A stretch of 50,679 nucleotides of DNA from Chloroflexi bacterium GWC2_73_18 (GTDB lineage Bacteria > Chloroflexota > Limnocylindria > Limnocylindrales > CSP1-4): the NCBI GenBank assembly GCA_001794945.1, contig MGMJ01000044.1:1415-52093 (forward strand). Reading direction: 5' to 3'. Positions within the stretch are counted from its first letter, which is position 1. Each line of letters starts with the position of its first letter. Positions 1,527 through 38,302 of this stretch are shown one piece after another. A program made the position numbers and the translations under genes. The notes beneath the pieces are model-generated. The model made no database searches, was not told where the DNA came from, and saw only the letters and a program-made list of their open reading frames with translations.

Positions 1527-3179
1527 TTGCATAGGGTCCTCGCCGCCGCGGCCGCCCTCGTCGTCCTCGCCCCCATCTATCTCACCCTCGTCGCGCGACG
1601 GGGCATCGTGGCGCGCCTCGCGCTGGCCCTCGGCATCGGCGGGATCCTCCTGACGACGGCTCTCGGCGCCACGAGCACCCCGGCCTCCGCTCACCTCACC
1701 GCCCCGGTCAGCGCCCAGCAGGTCGCCACCCTCGCCGCTCCGGTGCGAACCGGCTGGACGGCGCGCCAGGGGATCGAGCTCGGTTTCACCGTGGCCATGG
1801 ACCGCGCCTCGGTCGAGGCGGCGCTGCGGGTCTCACCGCAGAGCCGCTACCGGGTCGACTGGGACGCCGCCGGCACGATGGTGACGGTGCTTCCGGTGGG
1901 GACCTGGCAGCCCTCCACGATCTACACGATCTCGGTCGGGCCGGGCGCCCGCTCCCTCTCGGGTGCCCCGCTCGCCCGGATCTCGCCGGTGATCGTCTTC
2001 ACCGAGGCGGCCCCGACCGGACAGCTCGCCGCCACGGCGCCGCTGGGTGAGCGGGTCAGCCCCGAGACCGGCATCCGCATCACCTTCTCGCGGCCGGTCG
2101 ACCTGGCCAGCCTGCGCGCCGCCTTCTCGATCGAGCCGGCCGTCGCCGGCCACTTCGAGATCGTCGGCCGACGCGCCTCGCCGCGGACGGTGACGTGGTA
2201 CCCGGATGCGCCTCTCGTTCCCGACACCGAATACGCCATCACCTTCAGCCGCGCCGTGACCGACCGCGACGGCGTCGCCGTCGCCGACGCGCCGCGGCTC
2301 GTCGTGCGCACGATCGATCGGCCGGGGGTCGTCCGCTTCCGCCCGCGCGACCACGAGAACGGGATCGACCGCTACGCCCTCGTCAGCGTCCGCTTCACGC
2401 AACCGATGGACCGGGCCTCGACGGAGGCCGCCTTCAGCCTCTCCGGCGTCGACATGAAGAAGGGCAAGCTCTGGTGGGCCGAGAACGACACCGTGCTCGT
2501 CTTCGACTCGCCGGTCGCGCTGGAGTACGGCAAGGCCTACGTCATGACCGTCGCTCCGAGCGCGCGCTCCAAGACGGGTGTGCCGATCTCCGACGACCAG
2601 ACGGCCGTCGCCCGCACGGCCTTCCGTGTCGAACCGGCGCCGGTGATCCGACAGACCAGCGGCACCGGCGGCGGTGGCAGCGGGGGCAGCGGGGGCGGCG
2701 GGGGCAGCGGCGGCGGCGGCGGAGACACGAGCGGCGCGCCGTGGCTCGCCGCCGAGCAGCTCATGCTCCAGCTGGCTAACTGCACCCGCACCGGCGGCTG
2801 GGTCCTCTCCGACGGCAGCTGCCGCGGCTACGGTTCCAACGGCACCGCGCCGCTCGTCCTCGACAGCCGGATCTCCACCCTGGTCTCGCGGCCGTGGGCC
2901 AAGTACCTCGCCTCGACCGGCCAGCTCTACCACGGCGACCCGGGCTCGCGCCTTGCCAGCGCCGGGTACACCAACCGCTACTGGGGCGAGAACCTCACCT
3001 GGTACTCCGGGAGCCCGACCGCCGGCGCCATCGCCAGCGAGCTCTTCTACCAGAGCGAGAAGCCGTACAACGGCGGCCACTACCGCAACCTGATGGACGC
3101 GCGCTTCAAGCGCGTCGGGATCGGGGCCTGGGTCGTCGGCGGACGGATCTGGTTCGTCATGGACTTCTGGGGCGGCTGA
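1527..3179 (+). CDS. Exported/membrane-anchored protein: three SbsA-Ig-like (Big_5-type) repeats, a Gly/Ser linker and a C-terminal CAP/SCP (PR-1-like) domain
   Basis: There are N-terminal hydrophobic segments. A module of the form SP..G..V....I.I.FS.PMD..S occurs three times. The linker reads GTGGGGSGGSGGGGGSGGGGG. The C-terminus (...GENLTWYSG...SEKPYNGGHYRNLMDARFKRVGIGAWVVGGRIWFVMDFWGG) is CAP/YkwD-like. A TTG start at 1527 lies 10 nt after AGGAG (1512-1516). An alternative GTG at 1608 gives a classical signal peptide, MARLALALGIGGILLTTALGATSTPASA. Confidence 0.75.
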   Translation: MHRVLAAAAALVVLAPIYLTLVARRGIVARLALALGIGGILLTTALGATSTPASAHLTAPVSAQQVATLAAPVRTGWTARQGIELGFTVAMDRASVEAALRVSPQSRYRVDWDAAGTMVTVLPVGTWQPSTIYTISVGPGARSLSGAPLARISPVIVFTEAAPTGQLAATAPLGERVSPETGIRITFSRPVDLASLRAAFSIEPAVAGHFEIVGRRASPRTVTWYPDAPLVPDTEYAITFSRAVTDRDGVAVADAPRLVVRTIDRPGVVRFRPRDHENGIDRYALVSVRFTQPMDRASTEAAFSLSGVDMKKGKLWWAENDTVLVFDSPVALEYGKAYVMTVAPSARSKTGVPISDDQTAVARTAFRVEPAPVIRQTSGTGGGGSGGSGGGGGSGGGGGDTSGAPWLAAEQLMLQLANCTRTGGWVLSDGSCRGYGSNGTAPLVLDSRISTLVSRPWAKYLASTGQLYHGDPGSRLASAGYTNRYWGENLTWYSGSPTAGAIASELFYQSEKPYNGGHYRNLMDARFKRVGIGAWVVGGRIWFVMDFWGG

Positions 3180-3204
3180 GCGCGGCGCCCCGGCGGGCCT
3201 GGCG

Positions 3205-3507
3205 ATGATCCGCGGCGCGGTGATCCATCTGCTCGAAGCGCAGCCTCTGCTGGCCGACCTGCCGGCGCTCCCGGCGGCGGCCGACACGCTGCTGGTCTGC
3301 ACCAACCTGCGCGACCTGAGCGGCAAGCGACCGACCTTCATCGACAGCAGCGACTCGACCTTCGTCATCCCCTGGCCGACGATCCGCTTCGTGGAGATCC
3401 CGGCCGGCGCCGCCGAGGAGACGGCCAGGCTGGCCGCCGCCGAGGCCGAGGCGGCGGAACCGCTGGAGCTCGACGAGGACTTCCTGCGCCGGATACGCGA
3501 GGCCTGA
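3205..3507 (+). CDS. Hypothetical 100-aa protein with an acidic C-terminal tail
   Basis: The ORF has strong GC3 codon bias like its neighbours and fills the gap before topA. I recognise no domain (MIRGAVIHLLEAQPLLADLP...FVIPWPTIRFVEIP...ELDEDFLRRIREA). Confidence 0.5.
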   Translation: MIRGAVIHLLEAQPLLADLPALPAAADTLLVCTNLRDLSGKRPTFIDSSDSTFVIPWPTIRFVEIPAGAAEETARLAAAEAEAAEPLELDEDFLRRIREA

Positions 3508-3569
3508 GCGCGCTCTCCGCCGCGCGCCGCGCCCAGGCCGGAGTAAGCGGGCGCCAAGAGGGCCGATGC

Positions 3570-6963: not shown

Positions 6964-8534
6964 CCGTGACCGGTCGCGCGATCGCTCGCGCGGGTCTCGT
7001 CGTCACGGCCGCGTTCTTCGCCTCGCGCGTCCTCGGCTGGCTCCGCCTGGCGATCATCGGCACGCAGTTCGGGGCGAGCCCCGAGCTGGACGCCTACTTC
7101 GCCGCCTTCCGCATCCCCGACGCCATCTTCCAGTTCGTCGCTGCCGGGGCGCTCGCCTCGGCGCTCATCCCGGTGCTGACGGGGCTGCTGACGGCGGGGG
7201 AGGACGCACGCGCCTGGCGCGTCGTCTCGACCGTCGCCAACCTGATGCTCCTGGCGTTGCTGGTGCTGGCCGGCGCGTTCGCTCTCGCCGCGCCGGTGCT
7301 GATGCCGGCGATCACGCCCGGCTTCGACGCCGCCCAGACGGCGCGCACCGTGGAGCTGACGCGGATCATGCTCCTCTCGCCCGTCTTCCTGGCGCTCGGT
7401 GCGGTCGCCACCAGCGTTCTCAACACGCTCGGGCGGTTCGGTGCATCGGCGCTCGCCCCGATCGTCTACAACCTGGGGATCATCGCCGGTGCCGTCTTCC
7501 TCGCCCCCCGGATGGGTGTCAGCGGGCTGGCCGTGGGCGTCGTCCTCGGTGCCATCGGGCACCTGGCGGTGCAGGTGCCGCCCCTACGCGGACGGATGCG
7601 GTACGCGGCGGCGATCGACCCGGCCGACCCGGCGGCGCGCCAGACCTTCCTCCTCCTCGTGCCGCGCACGATCGGCCTGGCGGCCGGTCAGATCACCTTC
7701 CTCGTCAACACGAGTTTCGCCTCGGGCCTCGCCAGCGGGGCGATCACCGCCTACAACGTCGCCTTCACCGCGCTGCAGATCCCGATCGGCCTGATCGGCG
7801 TCCCGCTCGGGGTCGTTCTCCTCCCGTCCATGGCACAGGCGATCGCCGGGGGCGCCACGGCGCGATTCGCCGACCTGGTGCTCCGCTCGCTCCGGCTGAT
7901 CGCCTTCGTCATGCTGCCGCTCACCGGGCTGATGATGGTCCTGCGGCGCGAGGGCGTGGCGCTCCTCTTCGAGAGCGGGCGTTTCGACGCGAAGGCGGTC
8001 GAGCTGACCGCCGATGCGCTCCTCGTCTTCCTCGTCGGCCTCAGCGCCCACGCCATGATCGCCATCCTGGCGCCGGCCTTCTATGCCGGCAAGGACACGC
8101 GGACGCCGGTCCTGGCCGCGATCCTCGCGGTCGGCGTGAACGTCGCCATCGCCGCCCTGACGGTCGGGCCGCTCGGCCTGCGCGGGCTCGCCCTGGCGAT
8201 CGCCGCGGGCGCCTGGCTGGAGGTCGGCGTCCTGCTCGTGCTCCTGCGGCGGCGGGCGCCCGAGGTGGCGCTGGGACGGCTCGCCCGGGGGACCACCGTC
8301 TTCGCCGGAGGCGCCCTGCTCGCGGCGGGCGTGGCGCTCCTCGCGGCGCGGCTGCTCGACCCGTTGCTGGCGCCGGGCGCCGGGAAGGCGGCGCTCCTGG
8401 TCGGGCTGGCGCTCGCCGGCGCGGCGGCCACGGCGACCTATGTCGCCTACGCGGCGGTGCTGCGGATCCCGGAGTTGCCGGCGCTGGCGTCGCTCCTGCA
8501 CGACGCGCTCGGCCGGCGGAAGGGCCCGGCGTGA
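6960..8534 (+). CDS. murJ: Lipid II flippase MurJ/MviN
   Basis: The translation is ...FFASRVLGWLRLAIIGTQFGASPELDAYFAAFRIPDAIFQFVAAGALASALIPVL..., with about 14 predicted TM segments. GTG 6960 overlaps the xerC stop (GTGA). An alternative GTG is at 6966. Confidence 0.9.
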   Translation: MTVTGRAIARAGLVVTAAFFASRVLGWLRLAIIGTQFGASPELDAYFAAFRIPDAIFQFVAAGALASALIPVLTGLLTAGEDARAWRVVSTVANLMLLALLVLAGAFALAAPVLMPAITPGFDAAQTARTVELTRIMLLSPVFLALGAVATSVLNTLGRFGASALAPIVYNLGIIAGAVFLAPRMGVSGLAVGVVLGAIGHLAVQVPPLRGRMRYAAAIDPADPAARQTFLLLVPRTIGLAAGQITFLVNTSFASGLASGAITAYNVAFTALQIPIGLIGVPLGVVLLPSMAQAIAGGATARFADLVLRSLRLIAFVMLPLTGLMMVLRREGVALLFESGRFDAKAVELTADALLVFLVGLSAHAMIAILAPAFYAGKDTRTPVLAAILAVGVNVAIAALTVGPLGLRGLALAIAAGAWLEVGVLLVLLRRRAPEVALGRLARGTTVFAGGALLAAGVALLAARLLDPLLAPGAGKAALLVGLALAGAAATATYVAYAAVLRIPELPALASLLHDALGRRKGPA

Positions 8535-19077: not shown

Positions 19078-20913
19078 ATGAGCCTATCGACCAGCTACCG
19101 GACCCACACCTGCGGGGAGCTGCGCGCCGCCGACGCCGGCGCGGAGGCCGCCCTCGCCGGCTGGGTCCACCGCCGCCGCGACCAGGGCGGCCTCATCTTC
19201 CTCGACCTGCGCGACCGCCACGGGATCACCCAGGTCGTCATCGACGAAGCGTCCGCACCGGAGGCGCACACGGCCGCAGAGGAGCTGCGCACCGAGTTCG
19301 TCGTCCAGGTGCGTGGGCGCGTCGAGCGCCGCCCCGCCGGCACGGAGAACCTGAAGCTCCCGACCGGCGAGATCGAGCTGCGGGGGCGCGCTGTCCGCCT
19401 CCTCGCCGAGGCGAGGACGCCGCCCTTCTACATCAACGAGCCCGATGCGGTGATCGAAGAGGCGCTCCGCCTCCGCTACCGCTACCTCGACCTGCGCCGC
19501 GAGGAGATGCAGCGCCGCCTGGCGATGCGCGCCGCGCTCGTCACGGCCATCCGGGCCTTCCACGATGCCAGCGGCTTCGTCGAGGTCGAGACGCCGATCC
19601 TCATCAAGTCGACGCCCGAGGGGGCGCGCGACTTCATCGTCCCCTCCCGCTTCCAGCCCGGGAGCGTCTACGCTCTCCCGCAGTCGCCGCAGCAGCTCAA
19701 GCAGCTGCTCATGGTCGCCGGCACCGACCGCTACTACCAGATCGCGCGCTGCTTCCGCGACGAGGACCTGCGCGGCGACCGCCAGCCCGAGTTCACCCAG
19801 CTCGACCTGGAGATGAGCTTCGTGGCCGAGGACGACGTCATGGCCTTCGTGGAGGCGATGGTCATCGACGTCTCCCGGAAGGTCGCGCCCGAGCGGCCGA
19901 TCGCGCTGATCCCATTCCCGCGCTTCACTTACGAGGTGGCGCTCGAGCGCTTCGGCTCCGACAAACCCGACCTCCGCTTCGGGCTCGAGCTGGTGGACCT
20001 GGGCTCCGCCGTGGCCGGCGCCGGCTATCGCGTCTTCGACTCGACGCTCGCCGCCGGCGGACGGGTGATGGGGATCGTGGTGCCGGGCGGGGCGGGTATC
20101 TCGCGCTCGCAACTCGAGGAGTACGAGACGGCGGCCAGGCGCTTCGGGGCGAAGGGGCTGATCTGGATCGCGATCGAGCCGGACGGGCGGGGCCGCGTCC
20201 GCTCCACGATCTTCAAGGCGGTCGGCGAGGAAAGGACCGAAGCGATCGCCGTCGCCGCCGGGGCGGGGCCAGGCGACCTCGTCCTCGTCGTCGCCGACGC
20301 GAACATCACCTGCCAGGAGATCCTGGGCAAGCTCCGCGTCGAGGCTGGCAGGGGCCTCGGCCTGGCCGACCCGGACCTCCTCTCCTACTGCTGGGTCCAC
20401 CGTTTCCCGATGTACCACTGGGACGGCGAGAACGGCCGCTGGGACGCGACGCATAACCCCTTCAGCGCGCCGGTCCCCGCGGACGAGCCGCTCCTGGCGA
20501 CCCTCTCCGGCGACCCGACACAGCCTTCGCCAGAGGACCCGGCAGGGCGGGCGCGCGCCCAGCAGTACGACATCACCCTCAACGGCTGGGAGCTCGGCGG
20601 CGGCTCGGTGCGGATCCACCGACGCGAGCTGCTGGAGCGCTCCTTCGCCCTGATGGGTCACTCCTACGAGGGGATGCGGGAGCGCTTCGGCGGGATCCTC
20701 GAGGCGTTCGAGTACGGCGCCCCGCCGCACGGCGGGATCGCCCTCGGCATCGACCGCTGGGCCGCCCTCTTCGCCCGCGTCGAGAACATCCGCGAGGTGA
20801 TGGCCTTCCCCAAGACGCAGTCGGGGAGCGACCTGATGCTCGGCGCCCCCTCGCCGGCCGAGCCGCACCAGCTGGAGGAACTCGGTCTCCGCTCCGTGCC
20901 GCCGGAAGGGTAG
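19078..20913 (+). CDS. aspS: Aspartate--tRNA ligase
   Basis: The evidence is the N-terminal OB fold (RTHTCGELR...GWVHRRRDQGGLIFLDLRDRHG), class II motif 2 (QIARCFRDEDLRGDRQPEFTQLD), a GAD insertion, and motif 3 (GGIALGIDRW). Confidence 0.95.
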   Translation: MSLSTSYRTHTCGELRAADAGAEAALAGWVHRRRDQGGLIFLDLRDRHGITQVVIDEASAPEAHTAAEELRTEFVVQVRGRVERRPAGTENLKLPTGEIELRGRAVRLLAEARTPPFYINEPDAVIEEALRLRYRYLDLRREEMQRRLAMRAALVTAIRAFHDASGFVEVETPILIKSTPEGARDFIVPSRFQPGSVYALPQSPQQLKQLLMVAGTDRYYQIARCFRDEDLRGDRQPEFTQLDLEMSFVAEDDVMAFVEAMVIDVSRKVAPERPIALIPFPRFTYEVALERFGSDKPDLRFGLELVDLGSAVAGAGYRVFDSTLAAGGRVMGIVVPGGAGISRSQLEEYETAARRFGAKGLIWIAIEPDGRGRVRSTIFKAVGEERTEAIAVAAGAGPGDLVLVVADANITCQEILGKLRVEAGRGLGLADPDLLSYCWVHRFPMYHWDGENGRWDATHNPFSAPVPADEPLLATLSGDPTQPSPEDPAGRARAQQYDITLNGWELGGGSVRIHRRELLERSFALMGHSYEGMRERFGGILEAFEYGAPPHGGIALGIDRWAALFARVENIREVMAFPKTQSGSDLMLGAPSPAEPHQLEELGLRSVPPEG

Positions 20914-20932
20914 GGCCCGGCGCTTCCGGCGG
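20899..20932 (+). terminator. Hairpin spanning the aspS stop codon (10-bp stem ccgccggaag/cttccggcgg, 14-nt loop)
   Basis: A perfect 10-bp inverted repeat read from the sequence. The aspS stop TAG (20911-20913) lies in the loop. Confidence 0.35.
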
Positions 20933-20948
20933 GGAGCAGCGGCGCGAG

Positions 20949-21040
20949 CCCGGGTCGCCCCGTTTCGACCGGATCCCGCCCGGGGGGATCACCTGCCCCG
21001 GGTCGCCCGTTTGGCAAGGGGTTCCCGCCCGGGGGGAATG
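20949..21040. repeat. Two tandem ~45-48-bp direct repeats, each ending in a 19-bp GC-rich palindrome (gatcccgcccggggggatc; gttcccgcccggggggaat)
   Basis: Copy 1 is cccgggtcgccccgtttcgaccggatcccgcccggggggat (from 20949). Copy 2 is cccgggtcgcccgtttggcaaggggttcccgcccggggggaat (from 20998). They are about 75-80% identical by eye and lie in the intergenic region after aspS. Confidence 0.7.
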
Positions 21041-21042
21041 CG

Positions 21043-21781
21043 GTGGGGGTTGGACGGCCCGGGCTCGCCTCCGGGCCGGCTGCGACCCGTCCGCGCGCCA
21101 TCTCGGGCTCCGCGCCACGCTCGTCGGCGGGCGTTCTCCCGACCGGCGACCCGGGGAGGCGTGATCCCGGCGGCGTCAGCACGCCCCATTCCCCCGGGGC
21201 GGGAATCCGGAAGATCCGCGGCCGCGGCGGCTCCTCCTACGGCGTCTACGGCTCGAGCGACTCTTCGTACGGCGTCCACGGCTACAGCAACGCCACCGAC
21301 CAACCGGCGACGGTCGGTCAGTCCGGTGGCAACAGCACCGGGGTCCTCGGCTACGGCGGTTCGGCCGCGCTGCCCTTCGCCCGTTCAGGACCGGCGTCTA
21401 CGGCGCGCCGTCCAGGAGAGTAGATGCATCGGGGTGTACGGGCGCAGCACCGCCGGGCGCGGCGCCTTCGGCCAGGCGACGAGCGGAGTGGGCGTCTGGG
21501 GCGCCACCGTGAGCGGCTACGCCCTGCGCGCCTCCGGCCGGGTCACGTTCGACGACGCGAGCGGCACGGCCACGATCACGGCAGGCACGAAGAGCAAGAC
21601 CGTCACCCCTGGCTTCGATCTCACGACGAGCACGAAGGTCCTGGTCACTCTTCTGGGCAACCCCGGCGGAAGCACCGTGGTCCAACGCGTGGCCGTCAAC
21701 GCCACCACCGACACCTTCACCGTCTACCTCACCGCCGACGCGACGGCCAGCACGAAGTTCGCCTGGTTCGTCATCAGCTGA
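21043..21781 (+). pseudogene. Decayed paralogue A of the GVxG-repeat/WFVIS secreted protein (compare 35777-36949)
   Basis: Frame 1 (21043-21378) holds a degenerate signal region (TRPRAISGSAPRSSAGVLPTGDPG versus SRRALLAAS...GRPLPTRAANGDPV in the intact copy). Only about 4 repeats remain (GGSSYGVYGSSDSSYGVHGYSNATDQPATVGQSGGNSTGVLGYGG). At least three indels lie between 21377 and 21410, and frame 1 hits a stop at 21421. Frame 2 then reads ...GVYGRSTAGRGAFGQATSGVGVWG...VTFDDASGTATITAGTKSKTVTPGFDL...FTVYLTADATASTKFAWFVIS*. Confidence 0.75.
21188..21206. repeat. Third copy of the GC-rich palindrome (attcccccggggcgggaat), inside pseudogene A at its internal-deletion junction
   Basis: Its reverse complement, attcccgccccgggggaat, nearly equals the palindrome at 21021-21039. 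It sits exactly where homology to the intact paralogue is interrupted, between the mature N-terminus and the last repeats. Confidence 0.65.
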
Positions 21782-21799
21782 GAGGATGCCGACCCGGCC

Positions 21800-22416
21800 T
21801 TGCGGCCGGCCGGCGGGGCCGCCATACCGCGGCACCAAGCGCGCGGGGGGCGTCGAAGCGTGGTCCCCCTTCGCCCGGCCGCCAGCGCCGTGCCGACGCC
21901 GGCGTCGAAGACCGGCGTTCACGGCCGGAGCGACGCGACCGACGGGTACGGCGTCCACGGGCGGGCCGCGGATGGGATCGGGGTACTCGGCGTCTTGGGC
22001 ACACCGCCCAGCGCCCACCAACTGGAATACGCCGCTTCCGGCGTCCACGGGTACAGCTTCGACGGCATGGGGGTCTACGGCTACTGCGAGAACCTCCGGG
22101 CCGTCAACGCCTGGTGCCCCAATGGGATCGCCGTCGAGGCGACGAGTCAGAACGGGCCGGCCCTCGTGGTCGAGGGCAAGGTCACCTTCACGACCGCCGG
22201 CCTCTCCACGATCCGGTCCGGCAGCGACCGGGTCACGGTCACCCCGGGCGTCGGCATCGAGAGCACGAGCAAGATCCTCTGCACCCTGCACGGCAGCCCC
22301 GGCGGGGCGACCGCGATCCAGCGTGTCGTCCGCCACCCCGACGCCGATACGTTCACCATCTACGCCACGGCGAACGTGGCGAGCGAGTGTCCGTCTCCTG
22401 GTTCGTGATCAGCTGA
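21800..22416 (+). pseudogene. Short or decayed paralogue B of the GVxG-repeat/WFVIS protein
   Basis: The frame-2 ORF (21800-22408) has no convincing signal peptide. It begins homology at ...AVPTPASKTGVHGRSDATDGYGVHGRAADGIGVLG and carries the C-terminal domain (VTFTTAGLSTIRSGSDRVTVTPGVGIESTSKILCTLHGSPGGATAIQRVV...TFTIYATA). Between the conserved Tyr and Trp codons there are 35 nt where the paralogues have 36. This throws the family C-terminus VSVSWFVIS* into frame 1 (stop at 22414-22416). Confidence 0.6.
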
Positions 22417-23191
22417 GCGCGCCGACCAGGTCGGGTCGGAGGAGCAGGATCGCGAGGTAGGCCACCAGTGCCCAGCGGAGCGGCAGCACGGGGAGGTGGC
22501 CGATCGGCAGGAAGGCGTTGGCGGCGTAGGCGACGGTGTAGGCGAGGGCGACCGGGAGCGGGTCGCGCAGGAGGAGCACGCCGACGAGGAGCGATTCCGA
22601 GAAGCGGTCGGTGGCGCGGTCGACGTGAGGCCGGTGCTCGCCGCGGCGCCGGGCGTCGACGCCGTCGATCATGTCGAAGACGAGCGACGCGACGAGGAGG
22701 GCGAACGCCGGGGCGACCGCTCCTCCGAGCCGGGCGGCCGCCGCCGCGAAGCACGCCCAGGCCGCGAGGCGCGACACGTCGCGCGACGCCACCGGCAGCG
22801 GCAGCCAGCCGAGGGCGGCGTCGGCGGCGATCGCCACGGCGCGGCCCATGTCGACCCGCGGCGTCTCGCGGATCGCCCGGTACGGATGGCTCGCCCCGCT
22901 CATGTAGTCGAGGAAGAGGTGTACCAGGATGCAGACCAGGACAAGGGCACCGGCGGTCCGGTCGAACGTTGCGATGACAAGGCCCGCCGTGATCCAGAGG
23001 ACGCTGCCGAGCAGCTCGTGGAGGATCGTCCGGGCGTGCTGCATCCCGCCGATCCTTGGACGCAGCGACCGCAGGTGGAGGAGGTGATCAGCATCGGGGA
23101 GGACCGAGAGGGCGACCGCCGCGACGCGGTACTCCTCGGGGAAGAACGCCGAGATCCCCAGTCCGACGGCGACGTGGGTGACGCCGGTCAC
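22409..23191 (-). CDS. Polytopic membrane protein: N-terminal DUF457/YdjM-like metal-hydrolase module fused to a short CDP-alcohol-phosphatidyltransferase-like module
   Basis: The N-terminus, VTGVTHVAVGLG...LPDADHLLHLRS...HARTILHEL, resembles the YdjM family (THxxxG...PDxDH...HRxxxH). The C-terminal half carries FDMIDGVDARRRGEHRPHVDRATDRF, resembling the D-x2-DG-x2-AR...D-x3-D motif but lacking the conserved Gly. GTG 23191 lies 4 nt after GGGGGAG. Its stop overlaps the paralogue-B stop within the palindrome tcagctga. Confidence 0.6.
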   Translation of the reverse strand: MTGVTHVAVGLGISAFFPEEYRVAAVALSVLPDADHLLHLRSLRPRIGGMQHARTILHELLGSVLWITAGLVIATFDRTAGALVLVCILVHLFLDYMSGASHPYRAIRETPRVDMGRAVAIAADAALGWLPLPVASRDVSRLAAWACFAAAAARLGGAVAPAFALLVASLVFDMIDGVDARRRGEHRPHVDRATDRFSESLLVGVLLLRDPLPVALAYTVAYAANAFLPIGHLPVLPLRWALVAYLAILLLRPDLVGALS

Positions 23192-35619: not shown

Positions 35620-35649
35620 TTGACCGGCGGCGCACAATGGGCCCATCCT
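35620..35649 (+). promoter_or_regulatory. Possible sigma-70-type promoter for the repeat-protein gene (TTGACC, 18 nt, CATCCT)
   Basis: A near-consensus -35 (TTGACC, 35620-35625) lies in a 260-nt intergenic region. The -10 is weak. The downstream gene has a GAGGGAGG Shine-Dalgarno 9 nt before ATG 35777. Confidence 0.25.
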
Positions 35650-35776
35650 GGGCGGGAGGCGTCGACGCGCGGTCCATCCATCAGCCACGGTCGCCCCCCT
35701 GACCGCGCCGAGCCACTGGCGAGCCCGGCCCGCCCGGCTGGGTGGGGCTGCGCGCCCCCGAGGGAGGGTCCTCGCC

Positions 35777-36949
35777 ATGGCCATCGAGACCGCCGTTCCC
35801 CGTTCCCGTCGCGCCCTCCTCGCCGCCTCGCTGGGCGGCCTCGCCGCCCTGGCGGCACAGGCCCTGGGGCGTCCGTTGCCGACCCGTGCCGCCAACGGCG
35901 ACCCGGTGACCGTGGGCGGCACGTTGAGCGGCACGGCGATCACCAAGATCGCCAACAGCACCAACAGCAACACCGTCTTCTGGGGCGCCAGCAGCAGCGG
36001 GGTCGGCGTCTACGGCACCAGCAGCTCCTCCAGCGGCGTCCGCGGCGAGAGCAGCGGCGGGCGCGGCGTCTACGGCCTCAGCGGCGGTGACACCGGTGTC
36101 TTTGGCGAGAGCAGCGCGGTCGGGGTCTACGGCACCAGCAGCGGCATCGGCGAAAACGGGGTCGGCGTCTACGGCTACAGCAACTCCGCCTACGGCGTCC
36201 TTGGCCAGAGCGGCTCCTTCACCGGCGTCTACGGCATCAGCACGAGCGGGGTCGGCGTCGTGGGCGAGAGCAGCGCGGTCACCGGCGTCGAAGGCACCGC
36301 CACAAGTGGGGTCGGCGTTTCCGGCACGAGCAGCTCCTCCTACGGCGTGTACGGCACGAGCAGCTCCCTCTACGGCGTCTACGGCATCAGCACCTCGTCC
36401 TACGGCGTCCTCGGCCGGAGCCTCGCCCCGGACCGGCCGGCGATCGTCGGCCGGTCGAATGGCGACAACACGGGCATCCTCGGCTACTCGGGTTCCGGCG
36501 CCGTGCCCACCTCGCCCACCAAGACGGGCGTCTTCGGCTACGCCGTGCAGGACGCGGCGTCGCGCGGGGTGACGGGGCGCACGACCGAGGGCCGCGGCGT
36601 CAACGGGATGGCCACGACGGGCCGTGGCGTCTACGGCTACGCCAGCTCCGGGGTCGGCGTCTACGCCACCTGCGGGACCGGGGGGACCGCCCTCCAGGCC
36701 CAGGGCCCCGTCCACTTCAGCAGCGCCGGGCTGGCAGCCATCGCCAGCGGTACGAGCGACGTGACCGTGACGCCGGGGATCGATCTCGGCAGCGGCACCA
36801 AGGTGCTGGTCACGCTCATGGGCAACCCCGGCAGCACCGCCACCGTCGTCCACCGCGTCGCCGTGCACCCGCTCGCCGACTCGTTCACCGTCTACCTCAC
36901 CGGCACCGCCACTGGCGACACGAGGGTCGCCTGGTTCGTCATCAGCTAG
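35777..36949 (+). CDS. Tat-signal secreted protein with ~21 decapeptide S-x-x-G-V-(Y)-G repeats and a conserved ~90-aa C-terminal domain ending WFVIS (uncharacterised family)
   Basis: A twin-arginine signal is present: MAIETAVPRSRRALLAASLGGLAALAAQALG...TRA/AN. Residues ~72-297 are repeats such as SSSGVGVYGT, SSSSSGVRGE, SSGGRGVYGL, SGGDTGVFGE...SSSSYGVYGT, SSSLYGVYGI, STSSYGVLGR. The C-terminal domain reads VHFSSAGLAAIASGTSDVTVTPGIDLGSGTKVLVTLMGNPGSTATVVHRVAVHPLADSFTVYLTGTATGDTRVAWFVIS*. Two paralogous remnants lie at 21043-22416. Confidence 0.85.
   Translation: MAIETAVPRSRRALLAASLGGLAALAAQALGRPLPTRAANGDPVTVGGTLSGTAITKIANSTNSNTVFWGASSSGVGVYGTSSSSSGVRGESSGGRGVYGLSGGDTGVFGESSAVGVYGTSSGIGENGVGVYGYSNSAYGVLGQSGSFTGVYGISTSGVGVVGESSAVTGVEGTATSGVGVSGTSSSSYGVYGTSSSLYGVYGISTSSYGVLGRSLAPDRPAIVGRSNGDNTGILGYSGSGAVPTSPTKTGVFGYAVQDAASRGVTGRTTEGRGVNGMATTGRGVYGYASSGVGVYATCGTGGTALQAQGPVHFSSAGLAAIASGTSDVTVTPGIDLGSGTKVLVTLMGNPGSTATVVHRVAVHPLADSFTVYLTGTATGDTRVAWFVIS
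35990..36415 (+). repeat. Coding tandem array of 14 units of ~30 bp (AGCAGC-N8-10-GGCGTCTACGGCAnC)
   Basis: Read directly from the sequence. The units are 27-42 bp, mostly 30 bp, and recur with GGCGTCTACGGC cores. More degenerate units continue to about 36667. Confidence 0.85.
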
Positions 36950-37078: not shown

Positions 37079-38302
37079 GTGAGCGGCCGATGGAGTCGCG
37101 TCCGCCCGGCCGATCTTGAGCGCTGGGCCGCGGCCGATCTGGCTGCGCGGCCGGCGCGACTGGCGCGGCTGCGCCAGCGGATGGCGGCCGAGGGCGTGGA
37201 CGCCTGCTTCACCGTCCGCCGCGAGAACATCCGCTACCTGACCGGCTTCGGGCTCGCCGACGGCGAGGAGAAGGTGGCCGGCCATTCCGGGCAGTCGTTC
37301 GTCAGCGGCGACGAGGTCGTCGTGCTGGCCGACTCGCGCTACACGATCCAGGCCCGGGAGCAGGCGCCGGAGGCGCGGGTCGAGAGCTGCGGCTACGACC
37401 TGCGCGCCCGCTGGAAGGAGCTGGTCCGCACGCTCCGGCCGCTCGACCGGCGGCGTCGCCGAGTCCGACGCCTGGCCATCGAGGCCGGCTTCGTCTCGCA
37501 CGCGCTGTGGGATCGCCTCGCCGCCGCGGCGCCCGACGTCGAACTGGTGCCGGCGGAAGGCTGGGTGGAGGAGCAGCGGGCGGCGAAGGAGCCGGCCGAG
37601 GTCGAGCGGATCGCCGCTGCCTGCGTTCTCGGTGACGCAGCGCTGACGGCGCTCCTGCCGGCGATCCGGCCCGGTGTCACCGAGGCCGAGCTCGCCTGGG
37701 AGCTGGAGGCCTGGCTGCGCACCCATGGCGCCGAGGCGCTCGCCTTCCCGGTCGCCTGCCTGGCCGGCGAGCGGGCGGCCCTGCCGCACGGCTCTCCCGG
37801 CGGGCGCCGGATCCGCCGCGGCGAGGTGCTCCTCTTCGATTTCGGGGCGCAGGTCGCCGGGTACCGGAGCGACATGACACGGACGCTCTTCGTCGGTGAG
37901 CCGCGGCGGCGCGACCGCGCGATCCACGAGCTGGTGGCCCGCGCCCAGGAGGCGTCGTTCGCCACGCTGGGAGACGCCCTCGCTCGCGGCCGGTCGATCT
38001 CCGGCCGGGAGGTCGATGCGGCCGCTCGCGCCGTCATCGTTGCTGGCGGCCACGGCGACCACTTCGGCCACGGGACGGGCCACGGGATCGGTCTCGCCAC
38101 CCACGAGCTGCCGGCGCTGAGCGCGTCGGCTCCGGAGGGTGAGCCGCTCCCATCGCCCACCGTCTTCTCCGTCGAACCCGGGGTCTACCTTGACGGTGTG
38201 TGCGGCGTGCGGATCGAGGACCTGGTCGTCTACGAGGCCGCTCAAGGGCGCCTCGAACGGCTGACCCGCTTCCCGCGGGAGGTGACGGTCGTCGGGGAGT
38301 AG
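37079..38302 (+). CDS. Xaa-Pro aminopeptidase/dipeptidase (peptidase M24B)
   Basis: A creatinase-like N-domain is followed by a pita-bread catalytic domain with metal ligands (LLFDFGAQVAGYRSDMTRT; HGTGHGIGLATHE; VFSVEPGVY; GVRIEDLVV). It lies upstream of efp, like yqhT-efp in Bacillus. Confidence 0.9.
   Translation: MSGRWSRVRPADLERWAAADLAARPARLARLRQRMAAEGVDACFTVRRENIRYLTGFGLADGEEKVAGHSGQSFVSGDEVVVLADSRYTIQAREQAPEARVESCGYDLRARWKELVRTLRPLDRRRRRVRRLAIEAGFVSHALWDRLAAAAPDVELVPAEGWVEEQRAAKEPAEVERIAAACVLGDAALTALLPAIRPGVTEAELAWELEAWLRTHGAEALAFPVACLAGERAALPHGSPGGRRIRRGEVLLFDFGAQVAGYRSDMTRTLFVGEPRRRDRAIHELVARAQEASFATLGDALARGRSISGREVDAAARAVIVAGGHGDHFGHGTGHGIGLATHELPALSASAPEGEPLPSPTVFSVEPGVYLDGVCGVRIEDLVVYEAAQGRLERLTRFPREVTVVGE

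Follow-up and report, generated by a model that had tools for sequence, protein, structure and literature searches.

Two tandem fragments downstream of aspS in a groundwater Chloroflexota genome: probable relics of an expanded gene family

What are the two tandem, broken stretches of coding-like sequence that follow aspS in the genome of Chloroflexi bacterium GWC2_73_18? The stretch of DNA analysed here (the window; 50,679 nucleotides (nt) of contig MGMJ01000044.1) is C44:1415-52093 of G000, a 2.93-Mb metagenome-assembled genome (MAG) of 137 contigs with 73% G+C and 89.6% completeness. Within it, the interval 21043-22416 occupies three reading frames, according to both a mechanical list of open reading frames (ORFs) and the sequence. 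A preliminary description had taken this interval for two decayed copies, A and B, of the repeat protein encoded intact at 35777-36949, with pseudogenisation of a repeat-prone family as the default reading and silent donor cassettes for the intact gene as the alternative. The default reading has been upheld. Judged from sequence, A and B are probably pseudogene fragments, relics without function of a large family that has expanded in this lineage, because their lesions are real, they have neither the twin-arginine (Tat) signal nor the riboswitch of the intact gene, seven further family copies are broken and an intact 292-residue gene of the B type exists elsewhere.

That both stretches are related to the family was borne out, and their positions could be defined as follows.

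21215-21781, + strand: copy A, 5'-truncated and probably a pseudogene of the family (hmmsearch, blastn, mosaic profile).
21782-21879, + strand: spacer between A and B without family homology, the expected place of the missing 5' third of B (alignments of B begin at 21880-21887).
21880-22416, + strand: copy B, 5'-truncated and probably a pseudogene of a distinct short subfamily (alignments with the L063 and C61 genes).

In a six-frame hmmsearch, copy A matched the family hidden Markov model (HMM) in two frames, at model positions 98-164 and 111-307 (E 3e-41), and copy B matched positions 117-299 (E 5e-40). Model positions 1-97 were unmatched in A and 1-116 in B, so neither copy has a twin-arginine signal (PRSRRALLAAAAGGLAALAAQALGRP). 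Copy A extends from about codon 108 to the stop of a member of approximately 300 residues, with the last repeats and the complete C-terminal domain present (model 111-307), as had been recognized from the start. It ends in KFAWFVIS, with a TGA stop at 21779-21781. By blastn it was 73% identical to the gene on contig C113 and 81% identical to C135:16376-16757, and blastn of 20914-22500 against the genome found no family homology upstream of 21215. Copy A had been thought to have lost 130 to 140 repeat residues internally. Judged by these alignments it has no internal deletion, and its first ~107 codons are absent instead. Public homologues are mostly of 260 to 320 residues (from Candidatus Limnocylindria bacterium where named), so a length below 390 residues is normal for the family.

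The reading frame is broken in each copy, at the following sites.

21380-21405, + strand: frameshift zone of A (DNA alignment with three paralogues; sequence).
22391-22392, + strand: frameshift of B, one C gone from TGTCCCGTC (alignments with C61 and L063).

The first frame of A is open over 21043-21423, with family repeats from about 21217 (GGSSYGVYGSSDSSYGVHGYSNATDQPATVGQS), and the second runs to 21781, its terminal residues before the stop being GRVTFDDASGTATITAGTKSKTVTPGFDLTTSTKVLVTLLGNPGGSTVVQRVAVNATTDTFTVYLTADATASTKFAWFVIS. Three indels had been placed at 21377-21410; the frame changes are indeed there, and the count was revised to two 1-nt deletions. One nucleotide is missing from a C run, GCCC(C)G, at about 21380-21382, and another in GGC(T)ACGCC at about 21404/21405. 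The spacing from CTCGGC to ACCGGCGTCTAC is 38 nt in A, 39 nt in both the C113 gene and the intact gene of the window, and 42 nt in the family copy C135b. Together the two deletions shift TGVYG to the third frame, and a TAG stop arises at 21421-21423.

In copy B, a mechanical ORF with a TTG start occupies the third frame over 21800-22408 and ends in TIYATANVASECPSPGS before its stop; VSWFVIS and its stop lie one frame over, to 22416, where TGA at 22414-22416 is the ancestral stop. Intact relatives read TGTCCCGTC where B reads TGTCCGTC at 22388-22395. The frame of B now terminates at 22406-22408 (after ECPSPGS) in place of the family terminus CPVSWFVIS. The single 1-nt deletion said to displace VSWFVIS was thus confirmed against both C61 and L063. 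The proposed beginning of B 19 nt after A applies to the mechanical TTG ORF only, as homology starts at 21880, 99 nt past the stop of A. From that point B aligned to the C61 gene with a 39-nt perfect match (21880-21918) and 87% identity over 112 nt, and through the C-terminal domain with 81% nucleotide identity and one base missing in B.

A scan of JGI metagenome contigs gave L063 (WBZO01013875.1) as the sole locus matched by the ORF of B. The L063 gene is intact and encodes 292 residues with a Tat signal, starting MTIDATLPQTRRALLAGAIGGLAALTAQ and ending CPVSWFVIS. B aligned to nucleotides 349-879 of this gene at 81% over its whole length, including its middle part, which looked unique within the MAG. 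Copy B had been regarded as internally deleted. The match to codons ~117-292 is continuous, and on this alignment B is the corresponding part of a naturally short (292-residue) subfamily member with no internal deletion. The L063 homologue lies 3' of a gene for an ArsM-like S-adenosylmethionine methyltransferase, a setting unrelated to aspS (L063:1042-1851 and 2653-3531).

The 5' side of A has a different origin from that first proposed, since 21043-21214, described as its surviving signal region, belongs to a repeat that is dispersed in the genome.

20969-21209, + strand: non-coding repeat element of ~240 nt (blastn, nhmmer, alignments).

Blastn against the genome matched 20933-21225 to C137:20308-20592, C51:10508-10731 and C62:16584-16862, and nhmmer with a profile built from four copies found at least nine copies in the MAG. 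The element is built of two direct GATTCC(C/A)GCC(C/A)GG units (GATTCCCGCCCGG-type), a conserved core, CCACGCTCGGCGG, and, at the 3' end, one inverted copy; double changes from CG to AU preserve pairing in its terminal stem. When every HMMER filter was switched off, the three frames of 20914-21230 gave negative scores with the family HMM (-2.8 to -5.4 bits), as did control copies of the element at unrelated loci (-1.5 to -3.6 bits). The negative scores and the membership of a dispersed element together indicate that 21043-21214 is no decayed signal of A. The supposed mature N-terminus LPT..GDP and its identical nucleotide blocks are weak evidence, with GGCGACCCGG occurring 227 times and CCGACC 8489 times genome-wide. 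No more than 5 nt separate the end of the element core (21209) from the first position at which A is homologous to the C113 gene (21215), so that the element abuts the truncation point. A scan of 20800-22500 against Rfam gave only noise and no match for the element, which could be a MITE-like (miniature inverted-repeat transposable element) sequence or a structured RNA. Copies elsewhere in the genome are at C137:20291-20606, C62:16567-16878, C51:10484-10774, C37:4800-5044, C53:88294-88558, C27:203-463, C41:38186-38439 and C9:13235-13476.

Could the frameshifts be errors or chimeric joins, with A and B truly intact short paralogues? The source is a 137-contig MAG, its 26 similar family copies could mislead an assembler and the indels lie in short C runs. 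Six independent contigs, from different samples and assembly runs, were collected by exact look-up of the aspS protein (ENA ERZ28564412, the ANAN16 scaffold; ERZ909595 and ERZ909596, which are SRR1658466 and SRR1658463 of PRJNA268031, groundwater; ERZ27254739; ERZ27254727; and JGI 3300025309). The frameshift zone of A was covered by all six and the frameshift of B by three of them, with zero indel differences in A or B. The only differences in or around the two copies were single-nucleotide polymorphisms (SNPs) at 21086, 21264, 21278 and 21824, which distinguish two or more haplotypes. Since the same indels recur in different samples and assemblies (contigs with k127 and k141 names, the ANAN16 scaffold and the JGI assembly), assembly error is a very unlikely cause of the frameshifts; the preliminary description, too, had held it to be unlikely. 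The lesions are, on this comparison, older than the divergence of the haplotypes. Moreover, with the indels repaired, both copies would still be without start, signal and leader, and the view that they are artefacts is hardly credible.

A and B are not the only broken members. When all six frames of the genome were searched by hmmsearch with a profile built from 15 intact members, 26 copies were found, 17 intact and nine broken.

15 copies on ~15 contigs: complete genes of 280 to 535 residues, each with PRSRRALLAAAAGGLAALAAQALGRP.
2 copies, C114 and C135b: counted as intact, cut by contig ends (C135b is intact at 270 residues in another assembly, P0008).
9 copies: broken or fragmentary, namely A, B, C47, C53, C108, C103, C111, C32 and a second piece on C113.

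In seven of the nine broken copies the 3' part is kept and the 5' part is absent. Apart from A and B they lie at C47:27-484, C53:6661-7122, C108:7311-7563, C103:19838-20346, C111:21590-22228, C32:1853-1984 and C113:18582-18689. The C47 and C108 copies are frameshifted within the C-terminal domain, the C103 copy is split across several frames and the C111 copy has kept riboswitch and signal, with most of the remainder gone.

Family proteins consist of a Tat signal, G-x-G-V-x-G repeats and a C-terminal beta-sandwich domain of ~90 residues that ends in WFVI(S/G); no Pfam or NCBIfam model was found for any copy. An AlphaFold model of the C-terminal 116 residues of A, in the building of which 14 paralogues were used, shows a beta-sandwich (predicted local distance difference test score, pLDDT, > 90 for residues ~40-116). 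Foldseek of the C-terminal domain of A against PDB gave weak matches only (E ≥ 0.04), at the top of which were C-terminal domains of phage tailspikes, depolymerases and a pyocin fibre. This predicted resemblance is a lead, unused here as evidence, and would be compatible with a secreted fibre. A related genome (G004) carries about nine family copies, often in tandem, some with open frames of only 222 to 276 residues, and no family genes were found in four other good related assemblies. A scan of genome contigs with the intact protein gave no match.

Many intact members differ from A and B also in what precedes them, as is seen at the intact gene of the window.

35777-36949, + strand: intact family member of 390 residues, with twin-arginine signal, G-x-G-V-x-G repeats and the same C-terminal domain.
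35646-35739, + strand: cyclic di-GMP (c-di-GMP)-II-GAG riboswitch aptamer before this gene (Rfam RF03169, 61.6 bits, gathering score 40).

No RF03169 match was found before A or B (Rfam, 20800-22500, E up to 10). Above the gathering score, 17 RF03169 aptamers were found in the genome. Some ten matches, one of them just below that score, are directly 5' of family genes, and at least nine of the 17 intact genes have a riboswitch of their own. With 17 aptamers in 2.9 Mb, the genome is unusually rich in this motif. Eight aptamers above that score do not precede family members (C43:23212-23296, C112:46175-46259, C45:16188-16276, C111:11181-11264, C96:14127-14212, C118:5444-5527, C47:1309-1396 and C70:2165-2251). 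The B-type homologue at L063 has no RF03169 aptamer at the gathering score. A literature search on c-di-GMP-II-GAG found nothing relevant.

Several observations weigh against the reading of A and B as relics. All invariant family residues are present in the C-terminal domains of both copies, and public gene callers annotate a 115-residue protein on A and a 182-residue protein on B, both being open enough. The ratio of nonsynonymous to synonymous divergence (dN/dS; Nei-Gojobori, last ~115-170 codons) is not raised, either for A against C135b (dN 0.168, dS 0.362, dN/dS 0.46) or for B against C61 (dN 0.314, dS 0.534, dN/dS 0.59). Among 120 intact pairs the median was 0.69, a high family ratio that leaves little power. 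Branch-wise values from triplets (0.14-0.52 for A, 0.43-1.24 for B) were noisy and swung with the outgroup, the family being reticulate. The ratios of A and B resemble those of intact pairs and give no positive sign of neutral evolution, and the pattern of their C-terminal domains fits recent inactivation, and equally continued constraint.

On another reading the open parts would be new short genes, expressed as stand-alone proteins, perhaps by read-through from aspS. The ORF at issue in copy A is the following.

21434-21781, + strand: 115-residue ORF with GTG start, C-terminal domain alone (genes called in L042-L045; cluster P0001).

Both this ORF and the 182-residue ORF of B are called in several public assemblies, dN/dS is below 1, the C-terminal domain of A is predicted to fold confidently alone and no terminator-like site was seen between aspS and B. 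However, neither ORF has a signal peptide, and the domain otherwise always ends Tat-exported proteins. Short relatives number only five among 5.8 billion proteins, and these include the 115-residue ORF itself (100%) and another fragment from this genome. No sigma-70-like promoter or leaderless-type signal was seen before either start, and the frameshift of B removes the invariant W-F-V-I terminus. Stand-alone short genes are therefore an unlikely explanation, and decay of larger genes is preferred.

Copy A also records exchange between family members. In sliding windows it was C113-like over 21215-21330 (81-95% identity) and C135b/C114-like over 21395-21630 (73-90%, against 46-65% for C113). 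Trees of its segments, for which the groups used in approximately unbiased (AU) tests were named after the trees had been seen, gave the following.

21215-21375: groups with C113 (77/88); union with C135b/C114 rejected (AU p = 0.012).
21431-21634: groups with C135b and C114 (100/99); union with C113 rejected (AU p = 0.0002).
Last 147 nt of A: grouping undecided.

On these trees copy A combines two paralogue lineages and, as a mosaic, attests to old recombination between family members. The switch falls on the frameshift zone and on AAGACCGGCGTCTACGGCTACGC, the DNA block best conserved across the family. P0007, an intact 287-residue protein from another metagenome (61% amino acid identity), combines its segments in the same way, so that A probably became mosaic before it was inactivated. 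The idea that the frameshifts of A mark a recent recombination junction is weakened by P0007. Long perfect matches also join other members (C14-C21, 64 nt; C44i-C111 fragment, 60 nt; C21-C53 fragment, 59 nt; C135a-C47 fragment, 45 nt), and by this measure exchange or recent duplication happens often, in intact members no less than in broken ones.

If sequence moves within the family, do A, B and perhaps other truncated copies act as promoterless archives for gene conversion into expressed genes, by which a surface fibre would be varied? Some features are those of silent cassettes: seven of the nine broken copies are 5'-truncated with the 3' part kept, the C-terminal domains of A and B look intact with dN/dS below 1, and A is a recombinant of two paralogue lineages. 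Against this, the locus named as recipient, 35777-36949, is not the closest relative of either A or B, nor is there a single expression site: the genome has 17 intact genes, all of which carry a Tat signal, and at least nine of them have a riboswitch of their own. A was 71.5% identical to the named locus over 568 columns (longest identical run 21 nt, permutation p = 0.13), and B 68.3% (10 nt, p = 0.88). The blocks of 19 to 21 nt held to link the fragments with this gene exist, but they are typical of the family and give no sign of exchange, the median longest run of all 325 family pairs being 18 nt. The permutation test on runs of identity is liberal and flags chiefly the conserved AKTGVYGYA block, whose 25- to 31-nt coding sequence is identical among many paralogues and could act as a crossover site. 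Over the 325 pairs, no run involving A or B was significant after correction, including the 39-nt block shared by B and C61.

Mosaic alleles, proposed as the signature of cassette use, were looked for at 35777-36949. The exact 390-residue protein was present on six contigs from five samples, and contigs reached via the neighbouring peptidase gene added a second haplotype (SNPs at 37291 and 37408). In 9 to 11 independent consensus contigs of two haplotypes, the repeats and C-terminal domain of this gene showed no differences. The sole cluster of differences near it (35736-35796) lies < 100 nt from a contig end. It belongs to L055 (ENA ERZ978281, SRR1658344) and comprises six substitutions and a 1-nt gap in the 3' end of the riboswitch, the leader and codon 7 of the gene; an artefact of the contig end and a tract derived from a paralogue are both possible. 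The C61 gene, the best partner of B, was identical in four assemblies, with no mosaic alleles among these consensus contigs. As far as consensus contigs show, the population data thus lack the sequence exchange whose absence the preliminary description had named as refuting. The role of silent cassette for 35777-36949 is unsupported by these comparisons and improbable in general.

A wider version was considered as well. The 5'-truncated 3' modules (A, B, C53, C47 and C108), bounded by the AKTGVYGYA-coding block and the WFVIS-coding end, might form a distributed reservoir feeding segmental, many-to-many gene conversion, by which the C-terminal halves of the 17-gene family would be reshuffled. 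In favour of donor cassettes in general is that the B, C53 and C108 fragments have perfect matches of 39, 59 and 35 nt at their 5' edges (B with C61, 21880-21918; the C53 fragment with C21, C53:~7060-7119; C108:7311-7345 with window 36695-36729). These three are among the longest matches of the family, and a recombination hot spot, alignment ascertainment or constraint are possible causes. Even the best partners, however, are only ~81% identical overall, the segment trees, as far as they show, give a direction into A and not out of it, and the mosaic of A is probably old, as intact P0007 has the same combination. The fragments share no flanking sequence, their upstream sequences being unrelated, and a common mobile-element end was rejected on the same grounds. 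Donor cassettes, for one locus or as such a reservoir, are decidedly improbable, each to a like degree, and A and B continue to be read as relics.

The arrangement around aspS suggests how these relics may have formed. In 13 related genera aspS is followed, after 0.07 to 3 kb, by a mocA-like gene on the opposite strand and then a cysteine desulfurase gene, and in none of the 13 do the 7 kb 3' of aspS contain a family gene. A tandem pair of complete family genes would have been inserted between aspS and the mocA-like gene in this lineage, and the 5' parts of both would then have been deleted. In A the deletion possibly occurred by recombination between two copies of the repeat element, as suggested by the end of its truncation at that element. 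Single-base losses in C runs presumably came next, after selection had relaxed. Inactivation may be recent relative to the divergence of the copies, to judge from the C-terminal domains, which still look constrained. Evolution of the whole family would proceed by birth and death, through duplication, ectopic recombination and loss, with A and B on the side of loss.

Read in this way, the locus represents routine gene-family decay in uncultured groundwater Chloroflexota, an ordinary example within an interesting family. Annotation is corrected, as the public hypothetical proteins of 115 and 182 residues correspond to the probable relics A and B, and the 'signal remnant' is an unrelated repeat element. 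The context of 26 copies in 2.9 Mb, many of them preceded by a riboswitch and recombining with one another, suggests a fast-evolving surface structure. Were fragment sequence to move into intact genes, it would be a notable case of programmed variation outside pathogens. A reservoir, if true, would amount to many-to-many cassette variation of riboswitch-controlled surface fibres in free-living groundwater Chloroflexota, perhaps under phage or grazer pressure.

Silent cassettes are known from pilin pilE/pilS of Neisseria, vlsE/vls of Borrelia, msp2 of Anaplasma and the donor sites of tprK in Treponema. A and B resemble such systems in that they are tandem copies, promoterless and truncated at the 5' end, in which the 3' part is retained and short conserved blocks are shared with full-length genes. 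They differ in the lack of a single expression locus, in a far lower identity between donor and recipient (68-82% overall) and in number, with just two copies here in place of an array beside an expression site; the intact genes checked showed no mosaic alleles, and no dedicated cis element was found. With surface proteins controlled by c-di-GMP-II riboswitches the likeness extends to intact family members that stand directly behind an RF03169 aptamer; A and B lost the leader or never had it and so are outside this regulation. Decayed paralogues in birth-and-death families of bacterial surface and secreted proteins offer a further comparison. The present family is set apart from these in that it is uncharacterised, many of its members stand behind a c-di-GMP-II-GAG riboswitch and the C-terminal domains of its relics appear still to be under constraint. 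In common with them it has a large number of members within one genome, length-variable repeats, truncations, homopolymer frameshifts, ectopic recombination, patchy presence among related genera and intergenic relics.

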